Below, piece after piece: positions 1,685 to 58,192 of a DNA stretch of 64,000 bases (position 1 is its first letter; each line of letters opens with the position of its first letter). This stretch comes from Christensenella sp. UBA7102. GTDB taxonomy: Bacteria; Bacillota; Clostridia; Christensenellales; UBA1750. The notes beneath the pieces were generated by a model. That model did no database searches and was not told the DNA's origin. It saw nothing but the letters and a program-made list of their open reading frames with translations. The position numbers and the translations under genes were made by a program. The stretch lies in NCBI GenBank assembly GCA_002492415.1, contig DKYK01000038.1, forward strand, positions 47,028 to 111,027. Reading direction: 5' to 3'.

Positions 1685-2089
1685 ATGGACATTCGCATCG
1701 CCGAGGTGAGCGACCTGCGGGCGCTGCTGGCGCACGACCGCCACATCTGCCGCGCGCAGCTGGAGCGCAAGATTGCGGACCAACAGGTGCTCGTGCTGCT
1801 GGACGGCGAGATCTTTGCCGGCTGGCTGCGTTGGGGGATGTTCTGGGACGAGCACCCGTTTATGAATCTGCTCTATCTGCTGGAACCCTGGCGGGGCCGG
1901 GGGTTTGGCCGCCTGCTGGTGACGGATTGGGAGCGCCGCATGAAGGCGGCGGGCCACGGCCTGGTGATGACCTCCACGCAGGCCAATGAGTGCGCGCAGT
2001 TTTTCTATCGTCGCCTGGGCTATGTGGACGCCGGTTCCTTCTCGCTGCCCGGCGATCCGCTCGAGCTTATTCTGTCCAAAGCGCTGTAA
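1685..2089 (+). CDS. GNAT family N-acetyltransferase
   Basis: The start MDIRIAEV is preceded by AGGAGG. The acetyl-CoA motif region is PWRGRGFGRLLV, with a YRRLGY tail. A hairpin terminator lies downstream. Confidence 0.8.
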   Translation: MDIRIAEVSDLRALLAHDRHICRAQLERKIADQQVLVLLDGEIFAGWLRWGMFWDEHPFMNLLYLLEPWRGRGFGRLLVTDWERRMKAAGHGLVMTSTQANECAQFFYRRLGYVDAGSFSLPGDPLELILSKAL

Positions 2090-2105
2090 ACGTCCAAAAA
2101 CACAA

Positions 2106-2147
2106 GGGCCGTCTTCCTTGCTCAAGGGAAGGCGGCTTTGTGTTCGA
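2106..2147 (+). terminator. rho-independent terminator (possibly bidirectional)
   Basis: A 10-bp stem (GCCGTCTTCC / GGAAGGCGGC) is flanked by an A-run and a T-rich tail. Confidence 0.6.
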
Positions 2148-2410
2148 ATATAAGGAAGCAGGCGAAAAGATTGGAATGGAGAGGAGGAGTCATTCGTAAA
2201 TGAAATTACGCATGTGTTTTGTTTGGATGGATTGCCTGCCGGGGTTGTCTGTAGCGATCAGAGGGTTTTTCTTCTCCCCTGTCGATGGTATTATCATAGC
2301 ACGGAATTATGTTCAAATCATGGCCCAAGAATAAACGTTTTATGAACAGCATTGCTTTTATCGGCGCATTTTGACGGCTTCCTTCAGCAGCAGCGGCATG
2401 CCGGAAAAAT

Positions 2411-2602
2411 TCAGGGGTGCTGCTCCCGCATTCTTTTCTTTGCCTCTTCTATGGTTTCTCCATCCCGGGTCAGATAGCGATTCACAAACGCGTTCTCTAT
2501 TTTTGTGTACCTCTGCACAACTGTATTTTCGACTTTCTCATAGGTTTCAGCCACCTTTTCCGCAATTTTGTCGTTCGCCTTTGCGAATTTGGATTTTGCC
2601 AT
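2411..2602 (-). CDS. small hydrophilic hypothetical protein (63 aa)
   Basis: The product MAKSKFAKANDKIAEKVAETYEKVENTVVQRYTKIENAFVNRYL.. is helical and charged. It lies 31 nt downstream of the membrane-protein gene on the same strand, and the pair is divergent from a TetR gene. Confidence 0.55.
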   Translation of the reverse strand: MAKSKFAKANDKIAEKVAETYEKVENTVVQRYTKIENAFVNRYLTRDGETIEEAKKRMREQHP

Positions 2603-2633
2603 GGTATCGCTCCTTTCGTTTCCCGTCCGCCGC

Positions 2634-3005
2634 TCACTTCTTAATTCCCTTTATCAGGGGAACCAGACACAGCAGGATGACGATGCCCACAAGGCCGACC
2701 ACGATCCCTGCGGCCATCTTGCCCCAGACCATGCTCAGGCACATTCCAACGCCTAGCGCCAATGCGCCGACGATACCGACCACCACCGCAAGCATTGTTT
2801 TTGCGGAAAAGCGGATCGGCGCCTTGTGCTCCATTCTTCTCCACGCAACTAGCGTGATCAGCCCGAGGACCAGCCCGATGCAACCCAAAGCAATTCCCGG
2901 CCGGAATGCATCCCACTCGGGCAGCAGCGCCATGCACATGCCGAGCGCAAACAACACCCCGCTGACCGTCCCCAACACCAATGCTACCAAACTGCTCTTT
3001 TTCAT
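2634..3005 (-). CDS. small integral membrane protein (about 4 TM, 123 aa)
   Basis: I use the internal start MKKSSLVALVLG (ATG at 3003-3005). Four hydrophobic segments follow. The 90 upstream codons of track ORF 2634-3275 look non-coding. Confidence 0.65.
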   Translation of the reverse strand: MKKSSLVALVLGTVSGVLFALGMCMALLPEWDAFRPGIALGCIGLVLGLITLVAWRRMEHKAPIRFSAKTMLAVVVGIVGALALGVGMCLSMVWGKMAAGIVVGLVGIVILLCLVPLIKGIKK

Positions 3006-3135
3006 TTGAATTTTCCTCCTCGCATAATTAAAACAACAGTTGTTGTTTCTGCGTAGTTTCCAGTATAATGAACGCGGGTTGGAAACACAATCACCAATCT
3101 TTATACAACTGTTGGAATAATGAAAGGCGGCCTGC

Positions 3136-3660
3136 ATGAACACGAAGAACAACCGAAGGCGGCGGGAATCCGTCGAGCGGATAGAGAAAGTTTTTACTGA
3201 AATGCTCCAGACAAAAGAGCTGCGCGAAATCACGGTTTCGGACGTCTGCAAGCGGTGCGGGCTGAACCGCAGCACCTTTTACGCGAATTTTGCCGATATT
3301 TACGAGCTGGCAGATGCGTTGCGGCGGCATCTGGAGGAGGAGGTGAGCCAGCTTTACGAAGCGGAGCGGACGCAGCAATTCAACAGCAACGACTATCTGC
3401 GCCTGTTTCGCCACATGAAGGAAAACCAGGTGCTCTACCGCACCTATTTCAAGCTCGGGTATGACAATCAGTTCCAGGTCCAGAACTACGATCTTCACCA
3501 GGCCAGACGGTACTTTTCCGGTCAGCACATCGAATACCACATAGAATTTTTCCGGAACGGCTTCAATGCCATTGTCAAAATGTGGCTGGCGGGAGGCTGC
3601 AGGGAAACGCCGGAAGAAATGGAGGAGATCATCCGGCGCGAGTATCAGGACCGCGACTGA
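3136..3660 (+). CDS. TetR/AcrR family transcriptional regulator
   Basis: The N-terminal HTH (ITVSDVCKRCGLNRSTFYANFADIYEL) is typical of TetR. The gene is divergent from two small genes. Confidence 0.9.
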   Translation: MNTKNNRRRRESVERIEKVFTEMLQTKELREITVSDVCKRCGLNRSTFYANFADIYELADALRRHLEEEVSQLYEAERTQQFNSNDYLRLFRHMKENQVLYRTYFKLGYDNQFQVQNYDLHQARRYFSGQHIEYHIEFFRNGFNAIVKMWLAGGCRETPEEMEEIIRREYQDRD

Positions 3661-3804
3661 CGCGCAGCCAGGAGCGCCCGGGCGGCTTCATCCGTGCCGC
3701 TTCAACGGTTTGCGCCTTTTTTCAGTTGAAAACACGCACTCTGCATGCTATACTGACAAAGCAACTCTTTTAGCCATTTCCGGTCCATCGAGGAGGTCCC
3801 CGGC

Positions 3805-5169
3805 ATGTCCGATACCCGTTTTCTATCCAAAGCTTTTCTCAAGAGCGCGTTTGCCATTGCGGTCCCCATCTCGCTGCAGAACTTCATCACCTCCGCCGTC
3901 AATATGATCGACGTGGTCATGCTGGGGCATTTGGGCGATGTGGACATTGCGGCGGTAGGCTGCGCCAATCAGGTCTATTTTCTGCTGACCATTATACTCT
4001 TTGGCGTAAGTTCCGGCGCGGCGGTATTCATCGCGCAGTTCTGGGGCAAGCGCGACCTGCCCGGCGTGCACCGCACCATGGGCGTGATGACGCTGCTGGC
4101 CCTGGGGGTGTCGCTGCTATTCACGGCGGGCGCACTCTTCTTCCCCGAGGCGCTGCTCTCCATTTATTCGCGCGATCCCGCAGTTGTTGCGGCGGGCGCG
4201 CCATACCTGCGCATCGTGGGCTCGAGCTACATCGTCACCGCGCTGTCGCTGGCAATGAGCTCTGCCTGCCGCTCCACGGGCGACGTGCGCCTGCCCATGA
4301 TGACCAGCCTGCTCTCAGTGTTTGTCAACACCGCCCTCAACTTCGTGCTGATCTTCGGCCTGCTGGGCTTCCCGGCGATGGGCTTGACGGGCGCCGCCGT
4401 CGCGACGGCCATCGCCCGCATCATCGAGTTTGTCGTGCTCTACCTTCTGGTCTACAGCAAAAAGCTGCCCGTCGCCGCGACGCCGCGTCAGCTCTTTTCC
4501 CGGCTGGACGGTGCGTTCCTGCGCACGTACTTCAAGACCACGCTGCCTGTTCTGCTCAACGAGACGCTCTGGTCGGTAGGCGTATCGCTGTACACGGTGG
4601 CCTATGGGCTGCTGGGCACCAACGCGCTGGCCTCTGTGCAGATCTGCTCCACGGTGTTCAACCTCTTTATGGTGCTGGTGCGCGGCGTATCCAACGCCTG
4701 TGCCATCATGATTGGCCAGACCATCGGCTCGGGCGACGAAAAGGGCGCGCTGCGCGACGGCCTGCGCTTTCTCGTCCTTGTGCCCGCCATCGGCGCGGCA
4801 ATGTGCGCGCTGCTCATCGCCTGCCGGCCGGCAGTCCTCACCCTCTTTACTGTCACCCCCGAAACCCGTTCCCTCACTATGGAGCTGATGCTGCTGCAGG
4901 CCTTTAATATCATCCCCAAGTCCTTCAGCATGGTCATTATCGTGGGCCTGTGCCGCAGCGGCGGCGACACGCTCTTTGCTTGCGTGCTGGATACCGCCAC
5001 CGTCTGGCTCGTCGCCGTTCCCCTCGCCTTTCTCGGCGCGCATCTGGGCTTTCCCCTCTGGGCGGTCTACCTGTGCGTCTGCTCGGAGGACCTGGTCAAG
5101 GCCATCATCGGCATTCCCCGCATCTTCTCCAAAAAGTGGCTGCATAACCTCGTGCAGGACATCGGCTGA
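3805..5169 (+). CDS. MATE family efflux transporter
   Basis: 454 aa with about 12 TM segments. The N-terminus (AIAVPISLQNFITSAVNMIDVVMLGHLG) is typical of MATE. GGAGG precedes the ATG. Confidence 0.9.
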   Translation: MSDTRFLSKAFLKSAFAIAVPISLQNFITSAVNMIDVVMLGHLGDVDIAAVGCANQVYFLLTIILFGVSSGAAVFIAQFWGKRDLPGVHRTMGVMTLLALGVSLLFTAGALFFPEALLSIYSRDPAVVAAGAPYLRIVGSSYIVTALSLAMSSACRSTGDVRLPMMTSLLSVFVNTALNFVLIFGLLGFPAMGLTGAAVATAIARIIEFVVLYLLVYSKKLPVAATPRQLFSRLDGAFLRTYFKTTLPVLLNETLWSVGVSLYTVAYGLLGTNALASVQICSTVFNLFMVLVRGVSNACAIMIGQTIGSGDEKGALRDGLRFLVLVPAIGAAMCALLIACRPAVLTLFTVTPETRSLTMELMLLQAFNIIPKSFSMVIIVGLCRSGGDTLFACVLDTATVWLVAVPLAFLGAHLGFPLWAVYLCVCSEDLVKAIIGIPRIFSKKWLHNLVQDIG

Positions 5170-33981: not shown

Positions 33982-34005
33982 GCCGCTTGGCCGCTTGCCC
34001 AGGAT

Positions 34006-34060
34006 ATAGGCCCCTGTCTGCAAGGCCGTTTCGTCGCGCAGACAGGGGCCTATGCTTTCC
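34006..34060 (+). terminator. strong hairpin after the lactonase gene
   Basis: Perfect 16-bp stem (ATAGGCCCCTGTCTGC / GCAGACAGGGGCCTAT). The T-tract is weak. Confidence 0.6.
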
Positions 34061-34302
34061 ATGCCCTAACTTTTTTTCGGAATCGTGTATCCATGGGATC
34101 AATCTGGTAATACGGATAACATTCGTTGCAAGCGGGTGCAGCAACCTCCTGTGAAAAATAGGCGCAGCAGCCTGAGCACAAGAATTATGAAGAAAACTAT
34201 ATCAAGATGTCAAACAACAGGCAGAATCTTTTTAAGTACACAGGAAAATTCGCAAAGACGCATCTTCCTACAACCGCAACTCGGCTGAGCAAAGCATTGA
34301 TC

Positions 34303-34332
34303 TTGACGGACAGGCCATTGAAGTGCTATGAT
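34303..34332 (+). promoter_or_regulatory. SigA-type promoter, TTGACG-18-TATGAT, for the GNAT gene in the lower-G+C islet
   Basis: It was read directly and implies a leader of about 100 nt. Confidence 0.45.
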
Positions 34333-34441
34333 CAGCTACTGTATCGAAGCAGGCAAACAGTGGTGGCGCAGATCAGTACGTAAATCAAAAGCTTTCGGTG
34401 GAATCGATTTCCAAATCCAAATTTGCAGGAGGTATTTTGTC

Positions 34442-34888
34442 ATGAAAGTATTACGGGGAACGGCATCTGATATAGAGCCCTGGATGGAATTGGTCCGGCG
34501 CGTAAGCTGGAATTTTCCCGGGCTGGAAACCGAGGAGAGCATAGCGGAGCACGCGCAGACCGTATTGGGGTTTATGAGTAAGAGACAAGCGTTGTGCGTA
34601 AAATGCGGCAGTAGGATTGCAGGCGTAATCCTGTTTTCCCGAAGTCATAATATGATCTGCTGCCTGGCCGTAGCGCCGGAATACAGGCAGCGCGGCATCG
34701 GTTCGCTTCTTCTGAAAGAAGCGCTTGATGAATTGGACAGAAGCAAGGAGATTTCCGTATCAACATTTCGCGAAAATGATGAAAAGGGAGCGGCTCCAAG
34801 AGCGTTGTACAAAAAATTCGGGTTTCAAGAAGCCGAACTCATCGAGGAGTTCGGCTATCCAAACCAAAGATTCATTCTGTATCCCTGA
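34442..34888 (+). CDS. GNAT family N-acetyltransferase (in a lower-G+C islet)
   Basis: The product has YRQRGIGSLLLKEAL and YKKFGF. The start follows GCAGGAGG. Confidence 0.8.
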   Translation: MKVLRGTASDIEPWMELVRRVSWNFPGLETEESIAEHAQTVLGFMSKRQALCVKCGSRIAGVILFSRSHNMICCLAVAPEYRQRGIGSLLLKEALDELDRSKEISVSTFRENDEKGAAPRALYKKFGFQEAELIEEFGYPNQRFILYP

Positions 34889-34916
34889 AAGGTTCTCCCC
34901 TGCTTGGGGACAATCC

Positions 34917-34956
34917 GACAAAGGAGCCCCTGCCTCATTGCAAGGGCTCCTTTGTC
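34917..34956. terminator. hairpin between convergent genes
   Basis: Perfect 13-bp stem (GACAAAGGAGCCC / GGGCTCCTTTGTC). Confidence 0.6.
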
Positions 34957-34965
34957 ATGTTCAAA

Positions 34966-37900
34966 TCACTCGACGCTCTTCAGGCTCTCCACCATGTCGA
35001 TTTTCTTCAAGCTGAAATACATGAAAAAATTGACGATCACGGCGAATACGCCCGTGAGCGCGGCGCTGTACAGGTAGGACAACGCGCCGATCTCCTGGCC
35101 GAACATGATCATATCCACCTCACAGGTGCGGATCACGAACTGGTGCAGCACCACGCCGATGGCCATGCCCAGCAGGATGCCGATGCCCGTCAGCCAGATG
35201 TTTTCGCGGTAGACGTACATCGCCACTTCGCCGTCGTGGCAGCCCAGCACCTTGAGCGTCGCCAGCTCCCTTCTGCGCTCGATGATGGCGATGTTGTTCA
35301 GATTGTACAGCACCACGAACGCCAGCAGCGCCGCGGCCGCGACCAGCACCCACACCACCAGGTCCAGGCTGTGCATCATGTTGGCCACCTGCTCCTCCAG
35401 GTCGCTGACGAAAGACACGCCGCCCACATCCGGTATGCACAGCAACGCCTTGCCCAGCGCGTCCTGTCCTTCCATGCCTGTATTCGTTCGCAGAAACACC
35501 GTATCGTACTCCGGCGTCTCGCCGTACAACGTCTCATACAGCTCCGGCGTGATGTAGACGTAGTGGTACAGGTAGTTCTCGGCAACGCCCGTCACCGTCG
35601 CGCGCACTGCCTGCGTCTCGTCCCGCATCAACTCGATCTCATCGCCGATGGAGACCTCCAGCAGCCGTGCCGCCTTCTCGGTGAGCACCACGCCCTCCCC
35701 GGTCAGCTGTACGGGCTGCCCTCTTCGCGTCTGCAGGCTCACGATCTGCCCCAGGTCCTCCGACCTTTCGGGCACGAACAGGTTGACGGACTTGGTTACG
35801 CCGTTCGCCCGCGCGTCGATCACCGTCACCTGTGCCGACAGCTGTGCATCTACCGCATCCAGCTGCGCGATGTTGCGCTCCACTTCGGGCAGCTGATCCA
35901 ACTCGCCCGCATCCACGTTCACACTCGCATCGTAAGTCCACACGGTGCTGTACTGCTTGTTGACGATCTCCGCGATAGAGTCCCGCAGGCCAAATCCCAC
36001 CAGCAGCAGCCCCATGCAGGCGCCAATGCCGAACAGCGTCATCAGCAGCCGTTTTTTGTACCGGAACAGGTTACGGAAGGTGGCCTTTGCGGTAAAGCTC
36101 ATGCGCCGCCAAAGTGCGGGAATGTACTCCAGCACCACGCGCTTGCCCTCGGGCGGCGCCGCGGGGCGCATCAGCTGCGCGGGCGTCTCGGACAGCTGTG
36201 CATAGCAGGCCACGAGCGTCGCGCCCGCTACGCACGCCACTGCAAGGGCCACCGCCGACAGCGATAGACCCCATTGCACCGGCATCAGCATCACCGTGAG
36301 GTTGACATACAGCATGCGATAGGCCGTCATGATCACATAGGGGAACAGCGCCGACCCCACCGGGATTCCGATCAGGCCGCCCAGCACCGCCGCCAGCAGC
36401 GCATAGCCAAGATACTTACCTGCAATGGCCGCCTTGGAGTAGCCCAGCGCCTTCATTGTGCCCACCTGCAGACGGCCTTCCTCCACCATGCGCGTCATGG
36501 TCGTCAGCGCCACCAGCGCTGCCACCAGGAAGAAGATCGCGGGGAATACCCTGCCCAGCGCGCCGATGCGCTCGGCATCCAGGCCAAACTCCACATAGGA
36601 CTGTATGGACTCCCGATCCAGCACATACCACTCGGGTCTTTCCAGATCTGCAAGCTCCTGCTCGGCGTCTTCCACCTTGCGCTTGGCATCGTCAATGTCA
36701 TGCTGTGCGTCTGCGCTCTTTTCGTCGAATTCTGTCCTGGCCTCCTCGTACTCCGCCAGCGCATCCTCGTATTCCTTTCGACCGTCTTCGAGTTCCTGTC
36801 GGCCCTCTTCCAGTTCCTTTTCCGCCTTGTTCACCTCGGCCCAGCCCTTGTCGATCTCTGTCTGCCCATCCAGCAGCTGCTGTTCGCTCTGCTGAATCTG
36901 CTGCAGCGCATCGTCGTACTCGGTCTGCGCATCGGCGAGCTGCGCGCGCCCGCTCGAAATTCTTTGATCGGCGGCGTTCAGCTGCGCATAGCCATCGGCA
37001 ATGGCGTCGCGCGTGGGCTGCAATGCGCCGTCGATCACCGCGGTCAGCGTCTCATCGGTTGCAGGCGTCCCTTGCAGCGCACCGTCCACCTGCGGCAGAA
37101 TCTGCCCATAAAACTGCAGGGCACTGTTCTGCTCGTCGGTCAGTGAATAGCCCGCGTCCTGCGCCGCCTTCAGCGCGCCATAGTTGGTTTGCGCCTGGGT
37201 ATAGCCTTCTGCGCTCTTGAGCGCCTCCGCTTGCGCAGCATAGGCGTTGAACTGCGCGCTCTGCTCATCCAGCTGACGGCGGCTGTTGCTCGCCTGCGCC
37301 TCGCCGCTGCTCAGCTCGCTGCGCGCGTCGGCCAGCTCCTGCGCCGCAATGCCCAACTCCTCCTTGGCGGCGTTCAGCTCTTCCCAGCCCTCGTCAACCT
37401 TCTTCTGCTGCTTTCTCAGCTCATGCTTAGCATCGGCAATCTCTGCTTCGCCGTCCGCGATTTCCTGCTCGCCGTCGGCAATCTCCTGCGCCGCGTCGTC
37501 CAGCTTGACCTGCGCGTCGGCCAGCTTCTGTTCGGCGTCTGCAAGCTCCGCCTCGCCGTCGGCAATCTCCTGCTTTGCATCGGCGATCTTCTCCGCCGCC
37601 TCTGTCTGCACCTGTTGGTAGCGGATCTCACACCGTTCCCCGGCGATGGCCTCAATGCGGTCCTGCACATTATCAATATAGCTCTTATATCCGTCCTCAT
37701 AGCAGTTCAGTCCGTCCGCACCGTCGCACGTCAGGTACGCCACGGTATAGACCTCCATGGAGAAGCTCTCCGGCGGCACGCAAAGGAAGTACTGTACGTC
37801 GCCATTGCTGATGTCGGCAGTTCCGCGGTCAAAATTCAGGTACCAGGCATAGCTGCCCGCGCCCACCACGGTAAAACTCTCCTCCGCCAGCGTGTCGGAC

Positions 37901-51044: not shown

Positions 51045-51875
51045 ATGCAACAGATTCGCCTCATCGCCATCGACCTGGACGGCACGCTGCTCAATTCTGA
51101 CAAGGACATTTCCGCCTATAACCTTGCGGTGCTGCGCCGTGCCATCGCCGCGGGCGTGTACGTCGCCATCTCCAGCGGCCGCCGCTATGCCGACGTGACG
51201 GCCATCTCCGAGCGCATCGCGCCCGGGCAGCCCATCATCTGCTCCAACGGCGCCATGGCCTGCACGCAGAATCCGTTCGAACTGGTCTATTGCGAATGCC
51301 TAAGCAAGGAAAAACTGCGCGCCGTGGTGGGTGTACTGGAAAAGGAGTCCTGCTATTATCATGTCTACTGCGACGACGGCTCCGTGATGGAGAGCCGCAC
51401 CGCCAACCCTGGCAAAAAACGTAAGCTCAATTGCTACGACTATGCAGGCGACATCCTCACCGGCGATGAAATGCCCAAGTACGTAGGCGACGGCGCGCTC
51501 AAGGTGGTGTGCTTCACCCCCGATATTGAAAAACTCCAGCGCATCCGCGCCGGCATGGAGACCGTAGGCGGTCTGGAGGTCAGTTCTTCCTGGTGGGACA
51601 ATCTGGAAATGCTGGCCGGCGGCGTTCATAAAGGCGCCGCGCTGCACGCGCTGGCCGATAAGCTGGGGATTCCCATCGGGCAGACCATGGCCATTGGCGA
51701 TAACGAGAACGACTTGAGCATGCTGCGCGCCGCGGGCCTGTCCGTCGCCATGGGCAACGCCTCCGATGCCATCAAAGCTCAAGTGAATTACGTCACCGCC
51801 ACCAACGACGAGGATGGCGTGGGCAGGGCCATCGCTAAGCTGGTCCTGAATTCGGAAGAGGGGGAAACCCCATGA
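51045..51875 (+). CDS. Cof-type HAD-IIB hydrolase
   Basis: The product has IAIDLDGTLL, SGR and GDNENDLSML. The start follows AAGGAG. Confidence 0.9.
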   Translation: MQQIRLIAIDLDGTLLNSDKDISAYNLAVLRRAIAAGVYVAISSGRRYADVTAISERIAPGQPIICSNGAMACTQNPFELVYCECLSKEKLRAVVGVLEKESCYYHVYCDDGSVMESRTANPGKKRKLNCYDYAGDILTGDEMPKYVGDGALKVVCFTPDIEKLQRIRAGMETVGGLEVSSSWWDNLEMLAGGVHKGAALHALADKLGIPIGQTMAIGDNENDLSMLRAAGLSVAMGNASDAIKAQVNYVTATNDEDGVGRAIAKLVLNSEEGETP

Positions 51876-52981
51876 CAAAGGTCATCCTGCGGCGCTGTGA
51901 AGAATACGATTTGAAAGAAATCCAGCGCATACTGCACGAGTCCATCGAGCAGCTCGGCGGCATCCCGGCACTTCGCCCCGGCGCAAAGGTGCTGGTCAAG
52001 CCCAATCTTCTGATGCGCCGCGATCCCGACCGCCACACCACCACCCACCCCGTCGTGGTGGAAGCCGTGGTGCGTCAGCTGCAGGCCATGGGGTGCAGCG
52101 TCATCCTGGCCGACAGCCCCGGCGGTCCCTTCACCGAAGGGCTGCTGCGCGGCCTGTACGCGCTGACCGGCATGGAGGATGTCGCAAACCGCACTGGCGC
52201 CAGCCTGAACTGCTCCACCGAAAGCGTCGAGGTGGAGCTCCCCGACGCCTATCAGAGCCATATGCTCACAGTCATGCGCTGCGCGGCCGAGGCCGACTGC
52301 ATCGTCAGCGTAGGCAAGATTAAGACCCACGGTTTGACTGCCTACACCGGCGCGGTCAAGAATCTGTTCGGTCTGGTGCCGGGCATGCTCAAGGTGGACG
52401 CGCACGCTCGCTATCCCGACATTTCCGAGTTTTCCAAGCTGCTGCTGGACATTGAGCGCTGGGCGCAGCCCTGTCTGAGCGTGTTGGATGGAATCTTCGG
52501 CATGGAGGGCGCGGGGCCCTCGGGCGGCAGCCCGCGGCGTCTGAATGCGCTCGTCGTCTCCGACAATGCTCACGCCTGTGACGTGGTGGGCGCCGCCCTC
52601 ATCGGTTTTGCGCCCGAGGAGGTCGCAACGCTCAAGTGCGCCGCGAATCTGGGCGTGCTGCCCGTGCCCGTGGTTGTGGGCGATAGCGTGGACAGCCTTG
52701 CTCAACGTTTCCGCCGCGCCCCTGCGGACGCCGCCGCGCGCGGTATTTTGACCAACCCGATCTTTGCCCGCATGGTGCGTTCCAAGCCCGTGGTCAAAAA
52801 GAGCAGGTGCGTGGGCTGCGGCGCGTGCATGCGCTCCTGTCCCGGCAAGGCCATCGAACTGGTGGACAAAAGGCCCCGCTTCCATTACGAAAACTGTATC
52901 CGCTGCTACTGTTGTCAGGAGCTCTGCCCGCAGACGGCGATAGAAGTATGGCAGCCATTCTTCATGAAATGGCTGCGGTAA
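51872..52981 (+). CDS. DUF362 domain protein with a C-terminal 2x[4Fe-4S] ferredoxin domain
   Basis: VLVKPN and KTHGLT are DUF362-type motifs. The cluster motifs are CVGCGACMRSCP and CIRCYCCQELCP. The start overlaps the upstream stop (ATGA). Confidence 0.85.
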   Translation: MTKVILRRCEEYDLKEIQRILHESIEQLGGIPALRPGAKVLVKPNLLMRRDPDRHTTTHPVVVEAVVRQLQAMGCSVILADSPGGPFTEGLLRGLYALTGMEDVANRTGASLNCSTESVEVELPDAYQSHMLTVMRCAAEADCIVSVGKIKTHGLTAYTGAVKNLFGLVPGMLKVDAHARYPDISEFSKLLLDIERWAQPCLSVLDGIFGMEGAGPSGGSPRRLNALVVSDNAHACDVVGAALIGFAPEEVATLKCAANLGVLPVPVVVGDSVDSLAQRFRRAPADAAARGILTNPIFARMVRSKPVVKKSRCVGCGACMRSCPGKAIELVDKRPRFHYENCIRCYCCQELCPQTAIEVWQPFFMKWLR

Positions 52982-53014
52982 CATATTATTTTATATCTGG
53001 AGGTGTCGTTGATC

Positions 53015-53434
53015 ATGTTCTGTCCTCATTGTGGTTCTCAAATTGCAGATGGTTCGGCCTTCTGCCCTTCCTGCGGCGTTCAACTGAACGCGTCCGCCCC
53101 TGCCGCTGTGTCCGAGCAGCCCGCAGCATCTTCGAGCTATAAGGATTACCAGACCTTTAGCATCATCGTCTCCATCGTCTCCTTTCTGTGCTGCGGCGGC
53201 TGGTTGGGCGTGATCTTCGGCGTGCTGGGCATCGTGTTCAGCTCACAGGCCAAGACCGCCTTTAACGCAGGCGACATGGTCCAGGCGGAGTCCAAGTCCA
53301 AAAACGCCCGCCTGATGTGTATCCTGGGCCTGGTCATGATCGGCATCGGCGCCATCACCAGTGTTATCATCCTTGCCCTTTATGGCGCGTCCATTGCCGC
53401 CATGTTCTCTGAACTCTACGCACTGGCGCTGTAA
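53015..53434 (+). CDS. zinc-ribbon plus CD225/dispanin-like membrane protein, paralog 1
   Basis: MFCPHCGSQIADGSAFCPSCG is followed by a linker and then YQTFSIIVSIVSFLCCGGWLGVIFGVLGIVFSSQAKTAFNAGDMVQAESKSKNARLM plus a second TM segment. GGAGGTG lies upstream. Confidence 0.8.
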   Translation: MFCPHCGSQIADGSAFCPSCGVQLNASAPAAVSEQPAASSSYKDYQTFSIIVSIVSFLCCGGWLGVIFGVLGIVFSSQAKTAFNAGDMVQAESKSKNARLMCILGLVMIGIGAITSVIILALYGASIAAMFSELYALAL

Positions 53435-53464
53435 AGCGCGCACTGCACAGGGGAGGTGCCCTCC

Positions 53465-53893
53465 ATGCTCTGCCCACACTGCGGCTCTGAACTCGCGTCC
53501 GACGCGGCCTTTTGCATTCGTTGCGGCGCGATCCTCGCGCCCGCCGTCTCTCCGCCTGATCTCCCACCCGTCAAGGACTATCTGACGGTCAACATCGTGC
53601 TGCTGGCGCTGACAGCGCTGTGCTGCAGCTGCACGCCCGCCCTGGTCACAGGCATTCTGGGCGTGGTGTTTGCCTCGCAGGTCAAGTCCCTTGTTCAGGA
53701 GGGCAAGCGCGCGCAGGCCGAGGAAAAGTCCCGCCTGGCCAAATCTCTGGCCATCGCGACAGGTGTGCTGATGGGCGTCACCGCGCTGCTGCTCATCGCC
53801 TATCTGTTGTTCTTCTTCTGCTTCTACGGCGTGGCGTTCGCGTCGCTGCTGAACCAGATGAGCTTCTCCGCGCTTGCGGCGCTGCTACTGTAG
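53465..53893 (+). CDS. zinc-ribbon plus CD225/dispanin-like membrane protein, paralog 2
   Basis: MLCPHCGSELASDAAFCIRCG is followed by YLTVNIVLLALTALCCSC..GILGVVFASQVKSLVQEGKRAQAEEKSRLAKS plus a second TM segment. GGGGAGGTG lies 6 nt upstream. Confidence 0.8.
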   Translation: MLCPHCGSELASDAAFCIRCGAILAPAVSPPDLPPVKDYLTVNIVLLALTALCCSCTPALVTGILGVVFASQVKSLVQEGKRAQAEEKSRLAKSLAIATGVLMGVTALLLIAYLLFFFCFYGVAFASLLNQMSFSALAALLL

Positions 53894-53962
53894 TCCCTGT
53901 CCATTCTTCCGGCGGATCATTCCGCCCATCCCATACTCATCTGTGAATAGGAGGTATCCATC

Positions 53963-54529
53963 ATGTTCTGTCCCAACTGCGGAACCAAGCTCCCAGACGG
54001 CGCAGTCTTCTGCTCCAACTGCGGCGCTAAGGTCCAGGCTGAGTCCGCTCCCGTCGTCGAACCCGTGACCGAGCCTGTCACCGAACCCGTAACTGAACCT
54101 ATCGCGGAACCTGCGGTCGAGCCCATCGCGGAACCTGTCACCGAGCCCTTCACCGCCCAGCCCGCCGGCGAGACCTTCGAGGGCGAGTATACTGCGCAGC
54201 CCGTGCAGGAGTCCCCCGTTCAGAGAGCGCCTGAGCAGGCGCCTGCCGACTATGTGACCATCAACATCATACTGTGCGTAGCCTCGGTGCTCACCTGTTG
54301 CGGCTGCATCAGCATTGCCTCTCTGGTCACCTCCATCATCGGCATCGTGGCGGGCAGCGCGTGCAAGAAGGCCATTGCCGCCGGTGACTGGGCCACCGCC
54401 GAGGCCAAGAGCAAGACTGCCAAGACCATGTGGATCGTATCCGCGGTCATCGTGGGCGTGTCCATCCTCTCGGCCATCGTGCTCTTCCTGACTGGCGCCG
54501 CCGCCAGTATGCTCGGCTCCGACTGGTAA
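53963..54529 (+). CDS. zinc-ribbon plus CD225/dispanin-like membrane protein, paralog 3 (long EP-repeat linker)
   Basis: MFCPNCGTKLPDGAVFCSNCG is followed by (EPxx)x8 and then YVTINIILCVASVLTCCGC..IIGIVAGSACKKAIAAGDWATAEAKSKTAKT plus a second TM segment. AGGAGG lies upstream. Confidence 0.8.
   Translation: MFCPNCGTKLPDGAVFCSNCGAKVQAESAPVVEPVTEPVTEPVTEPIAEPAVEPIAEPVTEPFTAQPAGETFEGEYTAQPVQESPVQRAPEQAPADYVTINIILCVASVLTCCGCISIASLVTSIIGIVAGSACKKAIAAGDWATAEAKSKTAKTMWIVSAVIVGVSILSAIVLFLTGAAASMLGSDW
54059..54154 (+). repeat. eight tandem 12-nt units encoding (E-P-x-x)8
   Basis: GAACCCGTGACC GAGCCTGTCACC GAACCCGTAACT GAACCTATCGCG GAACCTGCGGTC GAGCCCATCGCG GAACCTGTCACC GAGCCCTTCACC. The repeat is in frame within CD225 paralog 3. 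Confidence 0.85.
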
Positions 54530-54536
54530 GCGCGTC

Positions 54537-54947
54537 ATGCGCTCCTCTGCAAAAGATACCCGCTTCAAGGGTGTGGGGATGCGCGTGCTGGCCTGGAGCA
54601 TCGTGGCCGCGGCCGCGGGCTTTACGCTGTACGTCTACTTCCACAACCCTTTCGAGGGCGGGGTGACGCTGTGCATGTTTCACGCGCTGACGGGGCTGGA
54701 CTGCCCGGGCTGCGGCATGACCCGCGCAGCCTGGCTGCTCATGCACGGCCATCCCATCCAGTCCCTTGCGCAGAACCCCTTTCTGTTTGTCATCTTTATC
54801 GCAGCCTATATGGGGATTGCAGAGCTGTCCCCCTATCTCATCGGACGGCGACTGCCGCAGCTGCACATCCCCAACTGGATGCTCATCGTGTTGTGCGCGC
54901 TGCTGTTCGTGTTCACCATCGCGCGCAATGTCATAAAATTTCTGTGA
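54537..54947 (+). CDS. DUF2752 domain-containing membrane protein
   Basis: CMFHALTGLDCPGCGMTRAAWLLMHG...NPF fits the DUF2752 signature. The gene starts 7 nt after paralog 3. An alternative start is at 54579. Confidence 0.8.
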   Translation: MRSSAKDTRFKGVGMRVLAWSIVAAAAGFTLYVYFHNPFEGGVTLCMFHALTGLDCPGCGMTRAAWLLMHGHPIQSLAQNPFLFVIFIAAYMGIAELSPYLIGRRLPQLHIPNWMLIVLCALLFVFTIARNVIKFL

Positions 54948-55519: not shown

Positions 55520-57139
55520 ATGACGTGGCAAGACTTTGTCCTGCTGGGGGGCGGCCTGGGCCTATTCCTGTTCGGCATGAAGCTGATGGGCGACGAGCTG
55601 GAGCGCGCCGCCGGCAACAGCTTGCGCCATCTGCTGGAAGTGCTCACGCGCAACCGCATCATGGGTCTGCTGATGGGTATGCTCTTTACCATGCTGGTGC
55701 AGTCCTCGTCGGCGACCACCGTCATGGTCGTGGGCTTTGTCAACGCAGGGCTCATGGACCTGTATCAGGCCGCAGGCGTCATCTTCGGCTCCAACATCGG
55801 CTCCACCATCACCGCGCAGCTGATCGCCTTTAAGCTGACGGACATCGCCCCCGCCTTCGTGTTGGTGGGCATGATCCTGTATTCCTTCGGCAAAAAAGCG
55901 TCGCTTCGCCAGGTGGGCGGCGTGCTGCTGGGCTTTGGCGTACTGTTCGTTGGCCTGGACCTGATGAGCGACTCCGTCTCCAAGTTGCGGGAAATGCCCG
56001 AGGTCGCCCAGGTCATGGCTTCCTTTTCCAGGACGCCCGTCCTGGGGATCCTGGCGGGCCTGGTCATCACCGCCATCATCCAGTCCTCGGCGGCCTCGGT
56101 CGGTATTCTGCAGCTGCTCGCCTCCCAGGGCCTCATCGGCCTTGACGCCGCGGTCTACGTGGTCATGGGCCAGAATATCGGCACCTGCGCCACGGCGCTG
56201 CTCGCCTCCATCGGCAGCAACAAGAACGCCCGCCGTACCGCCGTGCTGCACGTGCTGTTCAACGTGCTGGGTACGCTGGTGTTCTACATTGTGGTGCAGT
56301 TCCTCCCCGTCACCGACTGGGTGGCCTCCCTCACCCCCGGCGACCCCATGCGCCAGATTGCCAACATGCATCTGCTGTTCAACGTCTTTGGCGTCGCGCT
56401 CTTCTTCCCCTTCATCAATCAGTTGGTGGCGCTGGTCAACAAGATCGTCCCCGGCGAGGATCCTGCCGCCAACGCCAAGCGCCTGCAGTATCTCAATCAG
56501 AACATACTCAAAACCCCGCCCGTCGCGCTCAACCACGCCATCATGGAGTGCAAGCGCATGCAGCAGCTGGCCTATGACAACATAGAGCTTGCGATGCAGT
56601 GTTTCCTCGCGGGCAAGGCGACAGAAAGCCAGCGAACCGACCTGGCCGAGCAGGAGGATGTCATCAACTTCCTCAATCATGAGATCACAAAATACCTCGT
56701 GCTCATCAACCAGACCGAGCTTTCCGAGCACGAGGGTGTGCTGGTGGGCGAGCTGTTCCATGTGGTCAATGACGTCGAGCGCATCGGCGACCATGCGGAA
56801 AACATCATCGAATACGCTGTCTCGCGTGAGGCGGGTAAATTTGCGCTCTCCGAGGCTGCCCTGCTGGAGCTGCGCGATATGTATTCCTCCGTTCACGACC
56901 TGCTGAACATGGCCCTGACCTCCTTTGACACCCACGATGAGAACCGCATCGTGCGCGCCTACGCGCTGGAGGCCCGCGTCGACGACATGGCCGACCTGCT
57001 GCACGACCGCCACATCGAGCGCCTGACGCGCGGCCTGTGCACCCCCAACTCGGGCATGCTCTTCTCCGACACCGTCTCCAATCTAGAGCGCGTCGCCGAC
57101 CACGCCATCAACATCATCAATTCGGCCGATATGGACTGA
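55520..57139 (+). CDS. Na/Pi cotransporter family protein with a PhoU-like C-terminal domain
   Basis: MTWQDFVLLGGGLGLFLFGMKLMG is followed by a repeated QSSSATT/QSSAASV motif and C-terminal PhoU-like repeats (ERIGDHAENI, ERVADHAINI). The start follows GAAGGAGAG. Confidence 0.9.
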   Translation: MTWQDFVLLGGGLGLFLFGMKLMGDELERAAGNSLRHLLEVLTRNRIMGLLMGMLFTMLVQSSSATTVMVVGFVNAGLMDLYQAAGVIFGSNIGSTITAQLIAFKLTDIAPAFVLVGMILYSFGKKASLRQVGGVLLGFGVLFVGLDLMSDSVSKLREMPEVAQVMASFSRTPVLGILAGLVITAIIQSSAASVGILQLLASQGLIGLDAAVYVVMGQNIGTCATALLASIGSNKNARRTAVLHVLFNVLGTLVFYIVVQFLPVTDWVASLTPGDPMRQIANMHLLFNVFGVALFFPFINQLVALVNKIVPGEDPAANAKRLQYLNQNILKTPPVALNHAIMECKRMQQLAYDNIELAMQCFLAGKATESQRTDLAEQEDVINFLNHEITKYLVLINQTELSEHEGVLVGELFHVVNDVERIGDHAENIIEYAVSREAGKFALSEAALLELRDMYSSVHDLLNMALTSFDTHDENRIVRAYALEARVDDMADLLHDRHIERLTRGLCTPNSGMLFSDTVSNLERVADHAINIINSADMD

Positions 57140-57163
57140 CCCTGCGGCGTCCATCACACAGCA

Positions 57164-57196
57164 AAAAAGGCGTGGCCTTCGCGGTCACGCCTTTTG
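57164..57196. terminator. bidirectional terminator between the Na/Pi transporter gene and the AT-rich islet
   Basis: The stem (GGCGTGGCC / GGTCACGCC) is flanked by A6 and T4 runs. Confidence 0.65.
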
Positions 57197-57234
57197 CTGT
57201 AAGAAAGGCCGCCCCTTTTTTCGCAAGCCGGTAT

Positions 57235-57723
57235 TCAGCGTCTCAATTCATACCAGACATCTATCTCAGCTTTATCAGGTAGTTCGAACATCGAAAGCAG
57301 CTTATTTAGCAAACCTTCATCCACATAAAAGTCTGAACCGCCATTTCCTTCTTCAATTCTTTTATTGCGCTCTTCTATATTACGATTCCAAGTATCATCA
57401 TCAACATCAATATAATGCCATTCATAGCTAATATCACATGATTGTAAATATGATGAAATATCAATTCTGTTATCTTTTGTCCAAAATCCCCAATCCAATA
57501 TTACGTGGGCGCCTGCTTTGCAGATTTCCACAGCTTTCTTTTTCAGATAATCATTGACACGCTGAGCGAATATATTATAAAATTCTCCCTGCTCATTCGC
57601 AATCAAATCATACGTCGCCTCATCTGTTGACAGAATGACTGCATTGTGTTTTTCCTTAAGTGATTTCGCATAACAGGATTTCCCGCTGCATATTTTTCCA
57701 CATATCAAGTAAACTTTTCCCAT
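57235..57723 (-). CDS. P-loop kinase-like protein (AAA_33/zeta-toxin-like fold class), in an AT-rich islet
   Basis: Walker A is GKICSGKS, followed by ILSTDE and HVILDWGFW. The composition is strikingly AT-rich compared with the flanks. Confidence 0.8.
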   Translation of the reverse strand: MGKVYLICGKICSGKSCYAKSLKEKHNAVILSTDEATYDLIANEQGEFYNIFAQRVNDYLKKKAVEICKAGAHVILDWGFWTKDNRIDISSYLQSCDISYEWHYIDVDDDTWNRNIEERNKRIEEGNGGSDFYVDEGLLNKLLSMFELPDKAEIDVWYELRR

Positions 57724-57757
57724 AAATTCTCTCCATAATCATTGATGTGACTTAATC

Positions 57758-57976
57758 TTATTCTTTAGGCGTATCCTTATCTTGCTTGGAGCTGACTTTT
57801 GAAACAATGATACCCGTGCAGGTAACAACCACCACGCAAAGATACATCCCCATTCCCAATACACAACCGCTTGCATGATCCATACCATTTAAGAAATCGC
57901 CGCAGTTGACCGAAAAGAACAGCCCCGCGATTGCGACCGCACAGCCTGCCGCGAAATATATCCACACCTTTTTCAT
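57758..57976 (-). CDS. 72-aa small membrane protein
   Basis: MKKVWIYFAAGCAVAIAGLFFSV...GMGMYLCVVVVTCTGIIVS has 2 TM segments. The ATG lies 8 nt after GAAGGAG. The rest of track ORF 57758-58861 is antisense to the amidohydrolase gene. Confidence 0.5.
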   Translation of the reverse strand: MKKVWIYFAAGCAVAIAGLFFSVNCGDFLNGMDHASGCVLGMGMYLCVVVVTCTGIIVSKVSSKQDKDTPKE

Positions 57977-58192
57977 GCAATTCTGCTCCTTCGTCAAATT
58001 CCGGTATGCGAACCTTCTGTGTTCCAGATTATCACAGTACGGAATGAACTGCAACCCCTTCACCGGCACGTTTGCAGCCAGCCGTCGCGCGGCGCTGCCC
58101 GCAATGCGATTCGGCGGCGGTTTTGCTTGCGGACGCCCCCGGATGCGTGTATAATTGATATAATACAAAAGCTGTGCAGGAGGCGGGAGCGC

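Follow-up and report, generated by a model that had tools for sequence, protein, structure and literature searches.

The stretch of DNA analysed here, 64,000 nt from Christensenella sp. UBA7102 (contig DKYK01000038.1, positions 47,028 to 111,027; hereafter the window), carries on its forward strand a run of four small genes, W1 to W4. The first three encode proteins in which a predicted zinc ribbon is combined with a membrane domain of the CD225 (dispanin) family, and the fourth encodes a protein of the DUF2752 family. W1 (positions 53015-53434, 139 aa) is a lineage-restricted paralog, and W2 (53465-53893, 142 aa) is the middle and most divergent copy. W3 (53963-54529, 188 aa) has a long acidic, proline-rich linker and a divergent CD225 domain, and abuts the gene of the DUF2752 protein W4 (54537-54947, 136 aa), for which three transmembrane (TM) helices are predicted. 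The four open reading frames (ORFs), their common strand and the intergenic gaps of 30, 69 and 7 nt are exactly those listed in an earlier note on this DNA, and on near-identical human-associated metagenome contigs gene callers likewise report these four genes, each at an unchanged length. As detailed below, the last two genes represent a pair that is conserved far beyond this lineage.

Shine-Dalgarno-type sequences are found upstream of W1 (GGAGG, 52999-53003), 8 nt ahead of the W2 ATG (GGAGG, 53452-53456) and upstream of W3 (AGGAGG, 53949-53954). W4 has none, and its start lies 7 nt past the W3 stop, which suggests that its translation is coupled to that of W3. A scan of the locus for promoters and terminators gave counts no better than in shuffled sequence. 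The linker of W3 contains (EPVT/EPIA)n repeats encoded by a tandem DNA repeat of 12/24 nt (54058-54155; Tandem Repeats Finder: period 24, 4.1 copies, 71% matches). This stretch may expand and contract, since the length of the linker varies among orthologs (proteins of 180-218 aa).

Assignment of the four proteins to families was based on the Pfam gathering cut-offs, which are 25 bits for Zn_Ribbon_1 (PF13240), 27.1 bits for CD225 (PF04505) and 27 bits for DUF2752 (PF10825). The Zn_Ribbon_1 profile matches W1, W2 and W3 with 34.6, 32.3 and 42.6 bits, respectively. All three N-termini start with M-[FL]-C-P-x-C-G...C-x-x-C-G, and the four cysteines of the predicted ribbon are arranged as CxxC-x10-CxxC; the ribbons had been correctly recognized in the earlier note, which gave their spacer as 11 residues. 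The CD225 domains of W1 (aa 50-112, 53162-53350; it includes the CC, AGD and A-x6-A motifs and the second TM helix) and W2 (aa 48-108, 53606-53788) score 38.6 and 37.4 bits. The corresponding envelope in W3 (aa 94-169, 54242-54469, with the apex TCCGC) reaches only 18.0 bits when W3 is searched alone. Nevertheless, W3 can be aligned to W1 and W2 over the entire membrane module, CD225 is matched by seven of seven W3-type orthologs (best E=5e-11), and a profile built solely from W3-type sequences matches the solved dispanin PRRT1 at E=0.0059. On these grounds we assign W3 to the CD225 family despite its sub-threshold score, and the assignment is also supported by the structural model described below. 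The ortholog in L005 has a precomputed Pfam hit that is unmarked. Thus, the proposed identity of all three C-terminal modules as CD225 domains was upheld. By contrast, W1-W3 are not members of the NCBIfam family NF040945 ('CCC motif membrane protein'), which also comprises small membrane proteins with a cysteine-rich first helix; their scores of 33.7, 18.1 and 26.4 bits are well below its 65-bit cut-off.

The CC, G-D and A-x6-A motifs were described for bacterial dispanins in 2012 (PMC3282796). In the first hydrophobic segment the double-cysteine motif reads LCCGG in W1, LCCSC in W2 and TCCGC in W3. The loop that follows contains AGD and AESKSKNA in W1, and AGD and AEAKSKTA in W3. In W2 the second element is present (AEEKSRLA), but EGK replaces the G-D motif, so that this copy shows the G-D/A-x6-A feature only in part. 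The consensus G-[IV]-... proposed for the first helix does not extend to W3, in which the respective segment begins with S-I-I-G-I-V. Proteins combining a Zn ribbon with CD225 form thousands of clusters, which have already been named automatically by JGI and NCBI.

To place these domains relative to eukaryotic ones, 13 bacterial CD225 domains were combined into a profile, and this was compared with the PDB sequences. It matches PRRT1/SynDIG4 (9zks_M) with E=3e-11 over 80 profile positions. An hhalign comparison of the bacterial profile with a hand-typed IFITM3 segment gave a probability of 91%. The resemblance to IFITM proteins pointed out in the earlier note is supported at the level of homology; W1-W3 are members of the broader dispanin family and fall outside the IFITM subfamily.

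The CD225 fold has recently been described as type II, with an N-terminus that is proline-rich and lies in the cytoplasm, a re-entrant pair of helices M1a and M1b (their apex, with two conserved cysteines, is directed at the middle of the bilayer), a cytosolic loop that contains G-D, and a TM2 that is long and tilted; PRRT1 docks onto CNIH2 and GluA1 by its CD225 domain (PMC13262616; bioRxiv 10.64898/2026.06.24.734257). The AlphaFold2 model of W3 contains the Zn ribbon, a disordered linker, a helix at residues 97-111, a break at CCGCI, a second helix at 117-139, a break at AGD, and a third helix at 143-184. In this arrangement the model appears to match the fold seen in the 2026 cryo-electron microscopy studies. 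The dispanin loops contain 59 Lys/Arg versus 30 Asp/Glu residues, which favours a cytoplasmic location of the loop.

W4 is a typical DUF2752 protein, as had been proposed. It scores 64.7 bits and has every conserved position of the family pattern TGLxCPGCG...R...NP...RN. The family is large (25,523 clusters at 50% identity, E<=0.001), and in the alignments made here a single motif, CPGCG (in W4, C56-P-G-C59-G, encoded at 54702-54716), is free of any variation. Other conserved positions are R63, N80 and R130-N131; C46 is nearly invariant (Ser in locus L097), and H70 is substituted in several homologs. The AlphaFold2 model of W4 has an overall predicted local distance difference test score (pLDDT) of 82.4, with helices at residues 5-35, 47-52, 57-69, 73-79, 83-101 and 113-135. 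Three of these are long, and the region between the first two long helices includes the three short ones and bears C46, CPGCG, R63 and N80; R130-N131 is close to the C-terminal end of the last helix.

Counts of Lys/Arg versus Asp/Glu in 17 DUF2752 homologs are 50/12 for the N-terminus, 60/47 for the cysteine loop and 53/5 for the second loop. By the positive-inside rule, this bias suggests that the N-terminus and the second loop are cytoplasmic, whereas the cysteine loop and the Arg-Asn end are likely outside. CPGCG and the conserved Arg, Asn-Pro and Arg-Asn positions would then come together on the outer side of the membrane. This outward CxxC/Arg/Asn cluster has the appearance of a functional site, which might serve redox chemistry, the binding of metal or an interaction with lipid headgroups. 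The only match of the DUF2752 profile among the PDB sequences was the Zn ribbon of ribosomal protein eS27, at a non-significant E=7. In multiple alignments, MAFFT repeatedly matched the Zn-ribbon CPxCG of the partner proteins to CPGCG of DUF2752 (W4 aa 46-60, 54672-54716); the latter motif resembles a zinc knuckle, though it is predicted to face the outside of the cell.

The genomic context of DUF2752 was analysed in two sets of loci. The first was obtained by scanning species-representative genomes and includes 80 loci, 61 of them actinobacterial and 19 from other bacteria. A gene for a protein with a head and a Cys-motif hairpin lies immediately upstream of DUF2752, on the same strand, in 17 of the 19 non-actinobacterial loci. 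The second set, independent of the first, started from the most divergent aligned DUF2752 as a lead and covering a different clade of the family, consists of 80 metagenome loci, 72 of which have sufficient upstream DNA; the hairpin-protein gene precedes DUF2752 in 55 of these (76%), in seven cases as two tandem copies, and a few of the other loci have the third type of partner described below or a partner one gene away. In the reverse direction, DUF2752 is directly downstream in eight of eight loci with CD225 genes chosen only for the length of their contigs, amid unrelated flanks, although this test is biased, since the members used to build the query profile were themselves linked to DUF2752. 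A ninth pair (CD225 of 94 aa, DUF2752 of 154 aa) was found in L102, a record deposited as 'UNVERIFIED: Bacteriophage sp.' (MT839860.1).

The distance from the stop of the partner gene to the DUF2752 start is mostly between -4 and +10 nt, and the order CD225-DUF2752 recurs in at least five phyla among unrelated flanking genes. These observations establish CD225-DUF2752 as a conserved and probably co-expressed two-gene unit. The adjacency of the two families, which the earlier note had seen in this one locus, therefore extends far beyond it. The four-gene membrane module suggested there is real as a set of genes, but the conserved unit is the gene pair, W3 and W4, and W1 and W2 are specific to the lineage.

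The identity of the upstream partner demonstrates some diversity. Among the 17 partners from genomes, ten have a CD225 domain (Christensenellales, Verrucomicrobiota, Bacteroidota and Acidobacteriota), five a DUF4190 domain (other Verrucomicrobiota), and two belong to a third hairpin type without any Pfam domain, found in one verrucomicrobial and one planctomycete locus and having the C-terminal motif IPCISPCC..GLP.GIWA.VVLN. The 54 distinct metagenome partners gave 43 matches to CD225 and 12 to DUF4190, and their heads include GYF_2 in 24 cases, Zn_Ribbon_1 in nine and TIR_2 in one. Thus, CD225 is replaceable by a DUF4190 hairpin, and the head may be a Zn ribbon, GYF_2, absent or, once, TIR_2. 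A profile-profile comparison of the DUF4190 partners with CD225 gave a probability of 82.5% (E=1e-5). Third-type partners were noted in four loci (L022:1008-1634, L084:2056-2835, L127:1846-2463 and L133:1311-2081), with either a GYF_2 or a Zn-ribbon head; the domain ends with '..KLESY....IPCISPCC..GLP.GIWA.VVLN' in L022 and L084, and the ORFs of L127 and L133 were read as far as the shared 'KLESYGM' stretch.

Several further observations concern the neighbourhoods of DUF2752. In Brachybacterium (L007/L023) the gene lies within the trp operon (L007 4001-4429). The gene ahead of it (L007 3765-4004), which overlaps it by 4 nt, encodes a 79-aa protein, not CD225 according to Pfam, with two TM segments and a proline-rich N-terminus. 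A long proline-rich N-terminal region is part of the DUF2752 ORFs themselves in Micromonosporaceae. Other families of small membrane proteins, namely TM2, DUF4190, DUF975/GPDPase_memb and MamF_MmsF, are encoded around the pair in a number of loci (L095/L096, L099/L100, L088, L089, L022, L053 and L084), and several of these proteins bear the same GYF_2 or Zn-ribbon heads. Genes related to iron or Fe-S clusters also recur near the pair (L088, L089/L090, L091/L092, L099/L100 and L101), including a cysteine desulfurase-NifU-FeS_assembly_P run, FUR, FecR and MamF_MmsF; the gene for a DUF362/4Fe-4S protein in the window (51872-52981) fits this suggestive pattern.

Comparison with related genomes allowed us to trace the origin of the triplication. 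The nearest ones are Candidatus Spyradocola and Christensenella-like metagenome-assembled genomes of the order Christensenellales. In the window, W1-W4 are part of a longer same-strand run that begins with a HAD/Cof hydrolase and the DUF362/Fer4 protein and continues with a SpoU/TrmL methylase and a Na/Pi cotransporter. Christensenellales relatives have these flanking genes as well (HAD hydrolase and DUF362 on one side, TrmL and the Na/Pi transporter on the other), and the pair retains them down to 45% protein identity. The context of the locus is chromosomal and vertically inherited. The Spyradocola genome L008 likewise has three copies; of the more distant relatives, L009 and L011 carry two and L010, L012 and L005 one, and the lone copy in the latter three is always of the W3 type, with a long acidic linker and CC-x-C, and abuts DUF2752. 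Since these single-copy relatives carry between the same flanks only a W3-type gene and DUF2752, W3 and W4 are evidently the ancestral pair, and W1 and W2 are additions within the lineage. W1-type proteins are rare, with 25 clusters in a search of 5.8 billion proteins.

The pairwise identity of W1, W2 and W3 is 33-37%. The L008 counterpart of W4 is 85% identical, and the orthologs of W1 and W3 are 73-76% identical (W1 73-75%); the ratios of non-synonymous to synonymous substitution rates (dN/dS) in these comparisons are 0.23 for W1, 0.29 for W3 and 0.24 for W4. W2 has 38% identity to its positional counterpart in L008 (1926-2315), with a rough dN/dS of 0.69, and is nearer (45-51%) to the first copy of the more distant L009 and L011, which suggests that the gene at this place either evolves rapidly or was replaced. 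Among strain-level contigs there are 14 synonymous versus 5 non-synonymous changes over all four genes. These comparisons show an old duplication, with W1 and W3 evidently maintained under purifying selection; the earlier claim of an old and maintained duplication is supported for these two copies. Outside the locus, the G+C content of the window drops from a background of about 0.60 to 0.52-0.55 at 2001-4000, 34001-36000 and 56001-58000, the last of these dips spanning a gene for an AAA_33 kinase on the opposite strand (57235-57723).

The explanation that we favour, tentatively and at slightly less than an even chance, is that the locus encodes a two-component complex of the cytoplasmic membrane, where the dispanins serve DUF2752 as auxiliary subunits or adaptors. 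Its core would be one dispanin-type hairpin, here W3, with its gene translationally coupled to that of the three-TM DUF2752 protein, here W4, to which this lineage has added the two older, diverged paralogs W1 and W2. Judging by homology and the moderate-confidence model, each dispanin probably has the CD225 fold, that is, a cytoplasmic head, a disordered acidic or proline-rich linker, a re-entrant helix pair whose Cys-Cys apex is directed at the middle of the bilayer, a basic loop in the cytosol bearing G-D and A-x6-A, and then one long TM helix. The dispanins would dock on DUF2752 via their membrane helices, as PRRT1 does with CNIH2 and GluA1. The swappable cytoplasmic head (Zn ribbon, GYF_2, none or, rarely, TIR) could then link the outer thiol, metal or lipid-headgroup site of DUF2752 to cytoplasmic inputs, with the three paralogs serving as alternative or mixed subunits.

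A number of observations weigh against this explanation. The model of W3 is of moderate confidence only (pLDDT 68.9 overall, 89 for the Zn ribbon), and a Foldseek search with it gave no match, probably because the PDB library used ends in April 2026. The fold search with the W4 model found no solved structure alike. About 20% of the non-actinobacterial DUF2752 genes have no recognisable adjoining partner, and a CD225 or DUF4190 neighbour was seen at none of the 61 actinobacterial loci, so DUF2752 can work without an adjacent dispanin. The bias of the reverse test detracts from the complete association seen there. No CD225-DUF2752 fusion occurs among the ten longest DUF2752 representatives, which have low-complexity extensions only. 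Finally, the predicted topologies direct the Cys-Cys apex of the dispanin to the bilayer centre and place the CxxC motif of DUF2752 at the outer face; with the motifs at different depths and faces, a direct interplay of the cysteines is not supported. For this reason direct Cys-to-Cys chemistry, which had been considered as the main model, was demoted to one of the alternatives.

Among the alternatives, the best surviving one, although itself unlikely, is an IFITM-like antiviral module, in which the dispanin hairpins and DUF2752 alter the membrane and thereby block phage genome entry or superinfection, with the variable heads as sensors or effectors. Besides homology to the IFITM/dispanin family, it could account for the variation from one to three copies among close relatives and for the rapid change of W2 next to a well-conserved W4. 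It also draws on the report that mycobacterial homologs expressed in human cells confer moderate resistance to influenza (PMC4488726). One pair (L093/L094) has integrases of the phage type, GmrSD_N and a methylase of the EcoRI type as its neighbours, a mobile or defence-island-like setting unlike the other contexts, and one partner has a TIR_2 head fused to CD225. The latter protein (L168:1676-2479; TIR_2 at aa 10-150, CD225 at aa 186-253) is encoded 6 nt upstream of DUF2752 (2486-2884), on a low-GC contig with housekeeping-like flanks that include a RluD-type pseudouridine synthase.

However, such a head is seen in just one of 54 partners, and neither known defence systems nor mobility nor synteny support the phage-exclusion role that the earlier note had raised. 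PADLOC-DB 2.0 has no match for W1-W4, with nothing better than E=0.011. DUF2752 is nearly absent from plasmids (3 of 72,556) and is found in only 4 of 50,697 phage records, all of them UNVERIFIED faecal fragments; a scan of IMG/VR with the DUF2752 motif yielded nothing. The phage record that was inspected, MT839860.1 (7.5 kb), encodes PyrD, PyrK, PyrF and an ABC transporter and was rejected as a case of phage carriage, being evidently a fragment of a bacterial chromosome. The stable housekeeping flanks within Christensenellales are unlike those of a defence island, and the family, at about 25,500 clusters, is both very large and widely conserved. Altogether, the data weakly disfavour a phage-defence role of the locus.

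Somewhat less probable still is the possibility that DUF2752 is an enzyme or maturation factor acting on the Cys-Cys apex of the hairpin by thiol lipidation, thiol-disulfide exchange or metal insertion, as a counterpart of the palmitoylation required by eukaryotic dispanins. The first hydrophobic segment contains CC, CCC or CxCC in all three types of partners, and the partner alignments show little or no variation of CC; the conservation of CC in bacteria, which are not known to S-palmitoylate, was noted as unexplained in the 2012 study of dispanins (PMC3282796). The absolutely conserved CPGCG with its Arg and Asn residues likewise has the look of an active or metal site rather than of a scaffold. 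On the other hand, the charge-based topology puts this motif outside, whereas the apex of the dispanin reaches the bilayer centre from the cytoplasmic side. Moreover, CC has been lost in some DUF2752-linked paralogs ('FSCAG' in L008_1926, 'ICI' in L064_2118), neither the sequence nor the fold of DUF2752 resembles that of a known transferase or oxidoreductase, and the actinobacterial DUF2752 genes lack a CD225 or DUF4190 neighbour on which it could act.

A further conjecture, which we rate as marginally more doubtful than the latter, holds that in CD225-DUF2752 we see the IFITM/dispanin system in its ancestral, prokaryotic form, as a barrier or signalling device of the membrane. In this case DUF2752 would explain why the two cysteines have been kept, and the heads would sense or act, for instance against phage entry. 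Least probable is that the two families are independent and adjoin through co-regulation or clustering of genes for small membrane proteins: TM2, DUF4190, DUF975/GPDPase_memb and MamF_MmsF proteins with the same heads do share these neighbourhoods, and actinobacterial DUF2752 stands alone, but the fixed order and strand, the gaps of a few nucleotides and the recurrence in at least five phyla with unrelated flanks go well past loose clustering.

Among known systems, PRRT1/SynDIG4 and other eukaryotic dispanins (9zks/9zkt/9zku) are closest to the present one. The homology extends over the whole domain (E=3e-11), and the shared features are a proline-rich region at the N-terminus, predicted to be disordered and cytoplasmic, the Cys-Cys segment, a loop with G-D and A-x6-A that is probably cytosolic, and a predicted long TM helix. 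The eukaryotic proteins dock on polytopic membrane partners, and the same is proposed here for DUF2752. The bacterial proteins differ in that their head is a predicted folded Zn ribbon (in other lineages GYF_2, or no head at all) and that their genes, triplicated in the present case, share a putative operon with that of a dedicated partner. In this analysis no eukaryotic counterpart of DUF2752 was identified, and for bacteria S-palmitoylation of CC is not an established modification. With IFITM1-3, the proteins W1-W3 share the Pfam family and the layout of motifs; they differ in having no interferon context and no evident N-terminal endocytic YxxPhi-type motif, the N-terminus being the predicted Zn ribbon. 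The mycobacterial homologs of IFITM are also bacterial CD225 proteins of unknown native function, and some have the di-Cys motif; however, neither a Zn-ribbon head nor a genomic context is reported for them (PMC4488726), and no CD225 gene adjoins DUF2752 in the actinobacterial loci examined. As for W4, nothing sets it apart from the rest of DUF2752, a family without an assigned function or a solved relative.

In agreement with the statement of the earlier note that these genes have no assigned function, the 2015 paper on mycobacterial homologs remarks that the bacterial function of IFITM homologs was not studied (PMC4488726). In the literature searched, DUF2752 is nowhere mentioned, and the dispanin-DUF2752 pairing is likewise absent; DUF4190 appears in one paper. 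All four proteins had been catalogued and automatically annotated, the Zn-ribbon and CD225 architecture is common, and the association is probably visible in gene-neighbourhood databases. What is added here is a documented and quantified pairing, together with a suggested model, and not a new kind of protein.

Dispanins, which include the IFITMs, PRRT1/2 and TUSC5, matter in antiviral immunity, synaptic function and trafficking, and the eukaryotic ones are thought to derive from bacteria. The pairing described above means that a large share of bacterial dispanins and of the related DUF4190 hairpins have a dedicated and apparently translationally coupled partner, DUF2752. It offers a concrete two-protein system in which complex formation, cysteine chemistry and phenotypes can be addressed, and which could give a function to two families at present described only as DUFs. 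The three diverged paralogs of the Christensenella locus represent a natural experiment in subunit diversification, and the pair as a whole provides a route toward the original function of dispanins.

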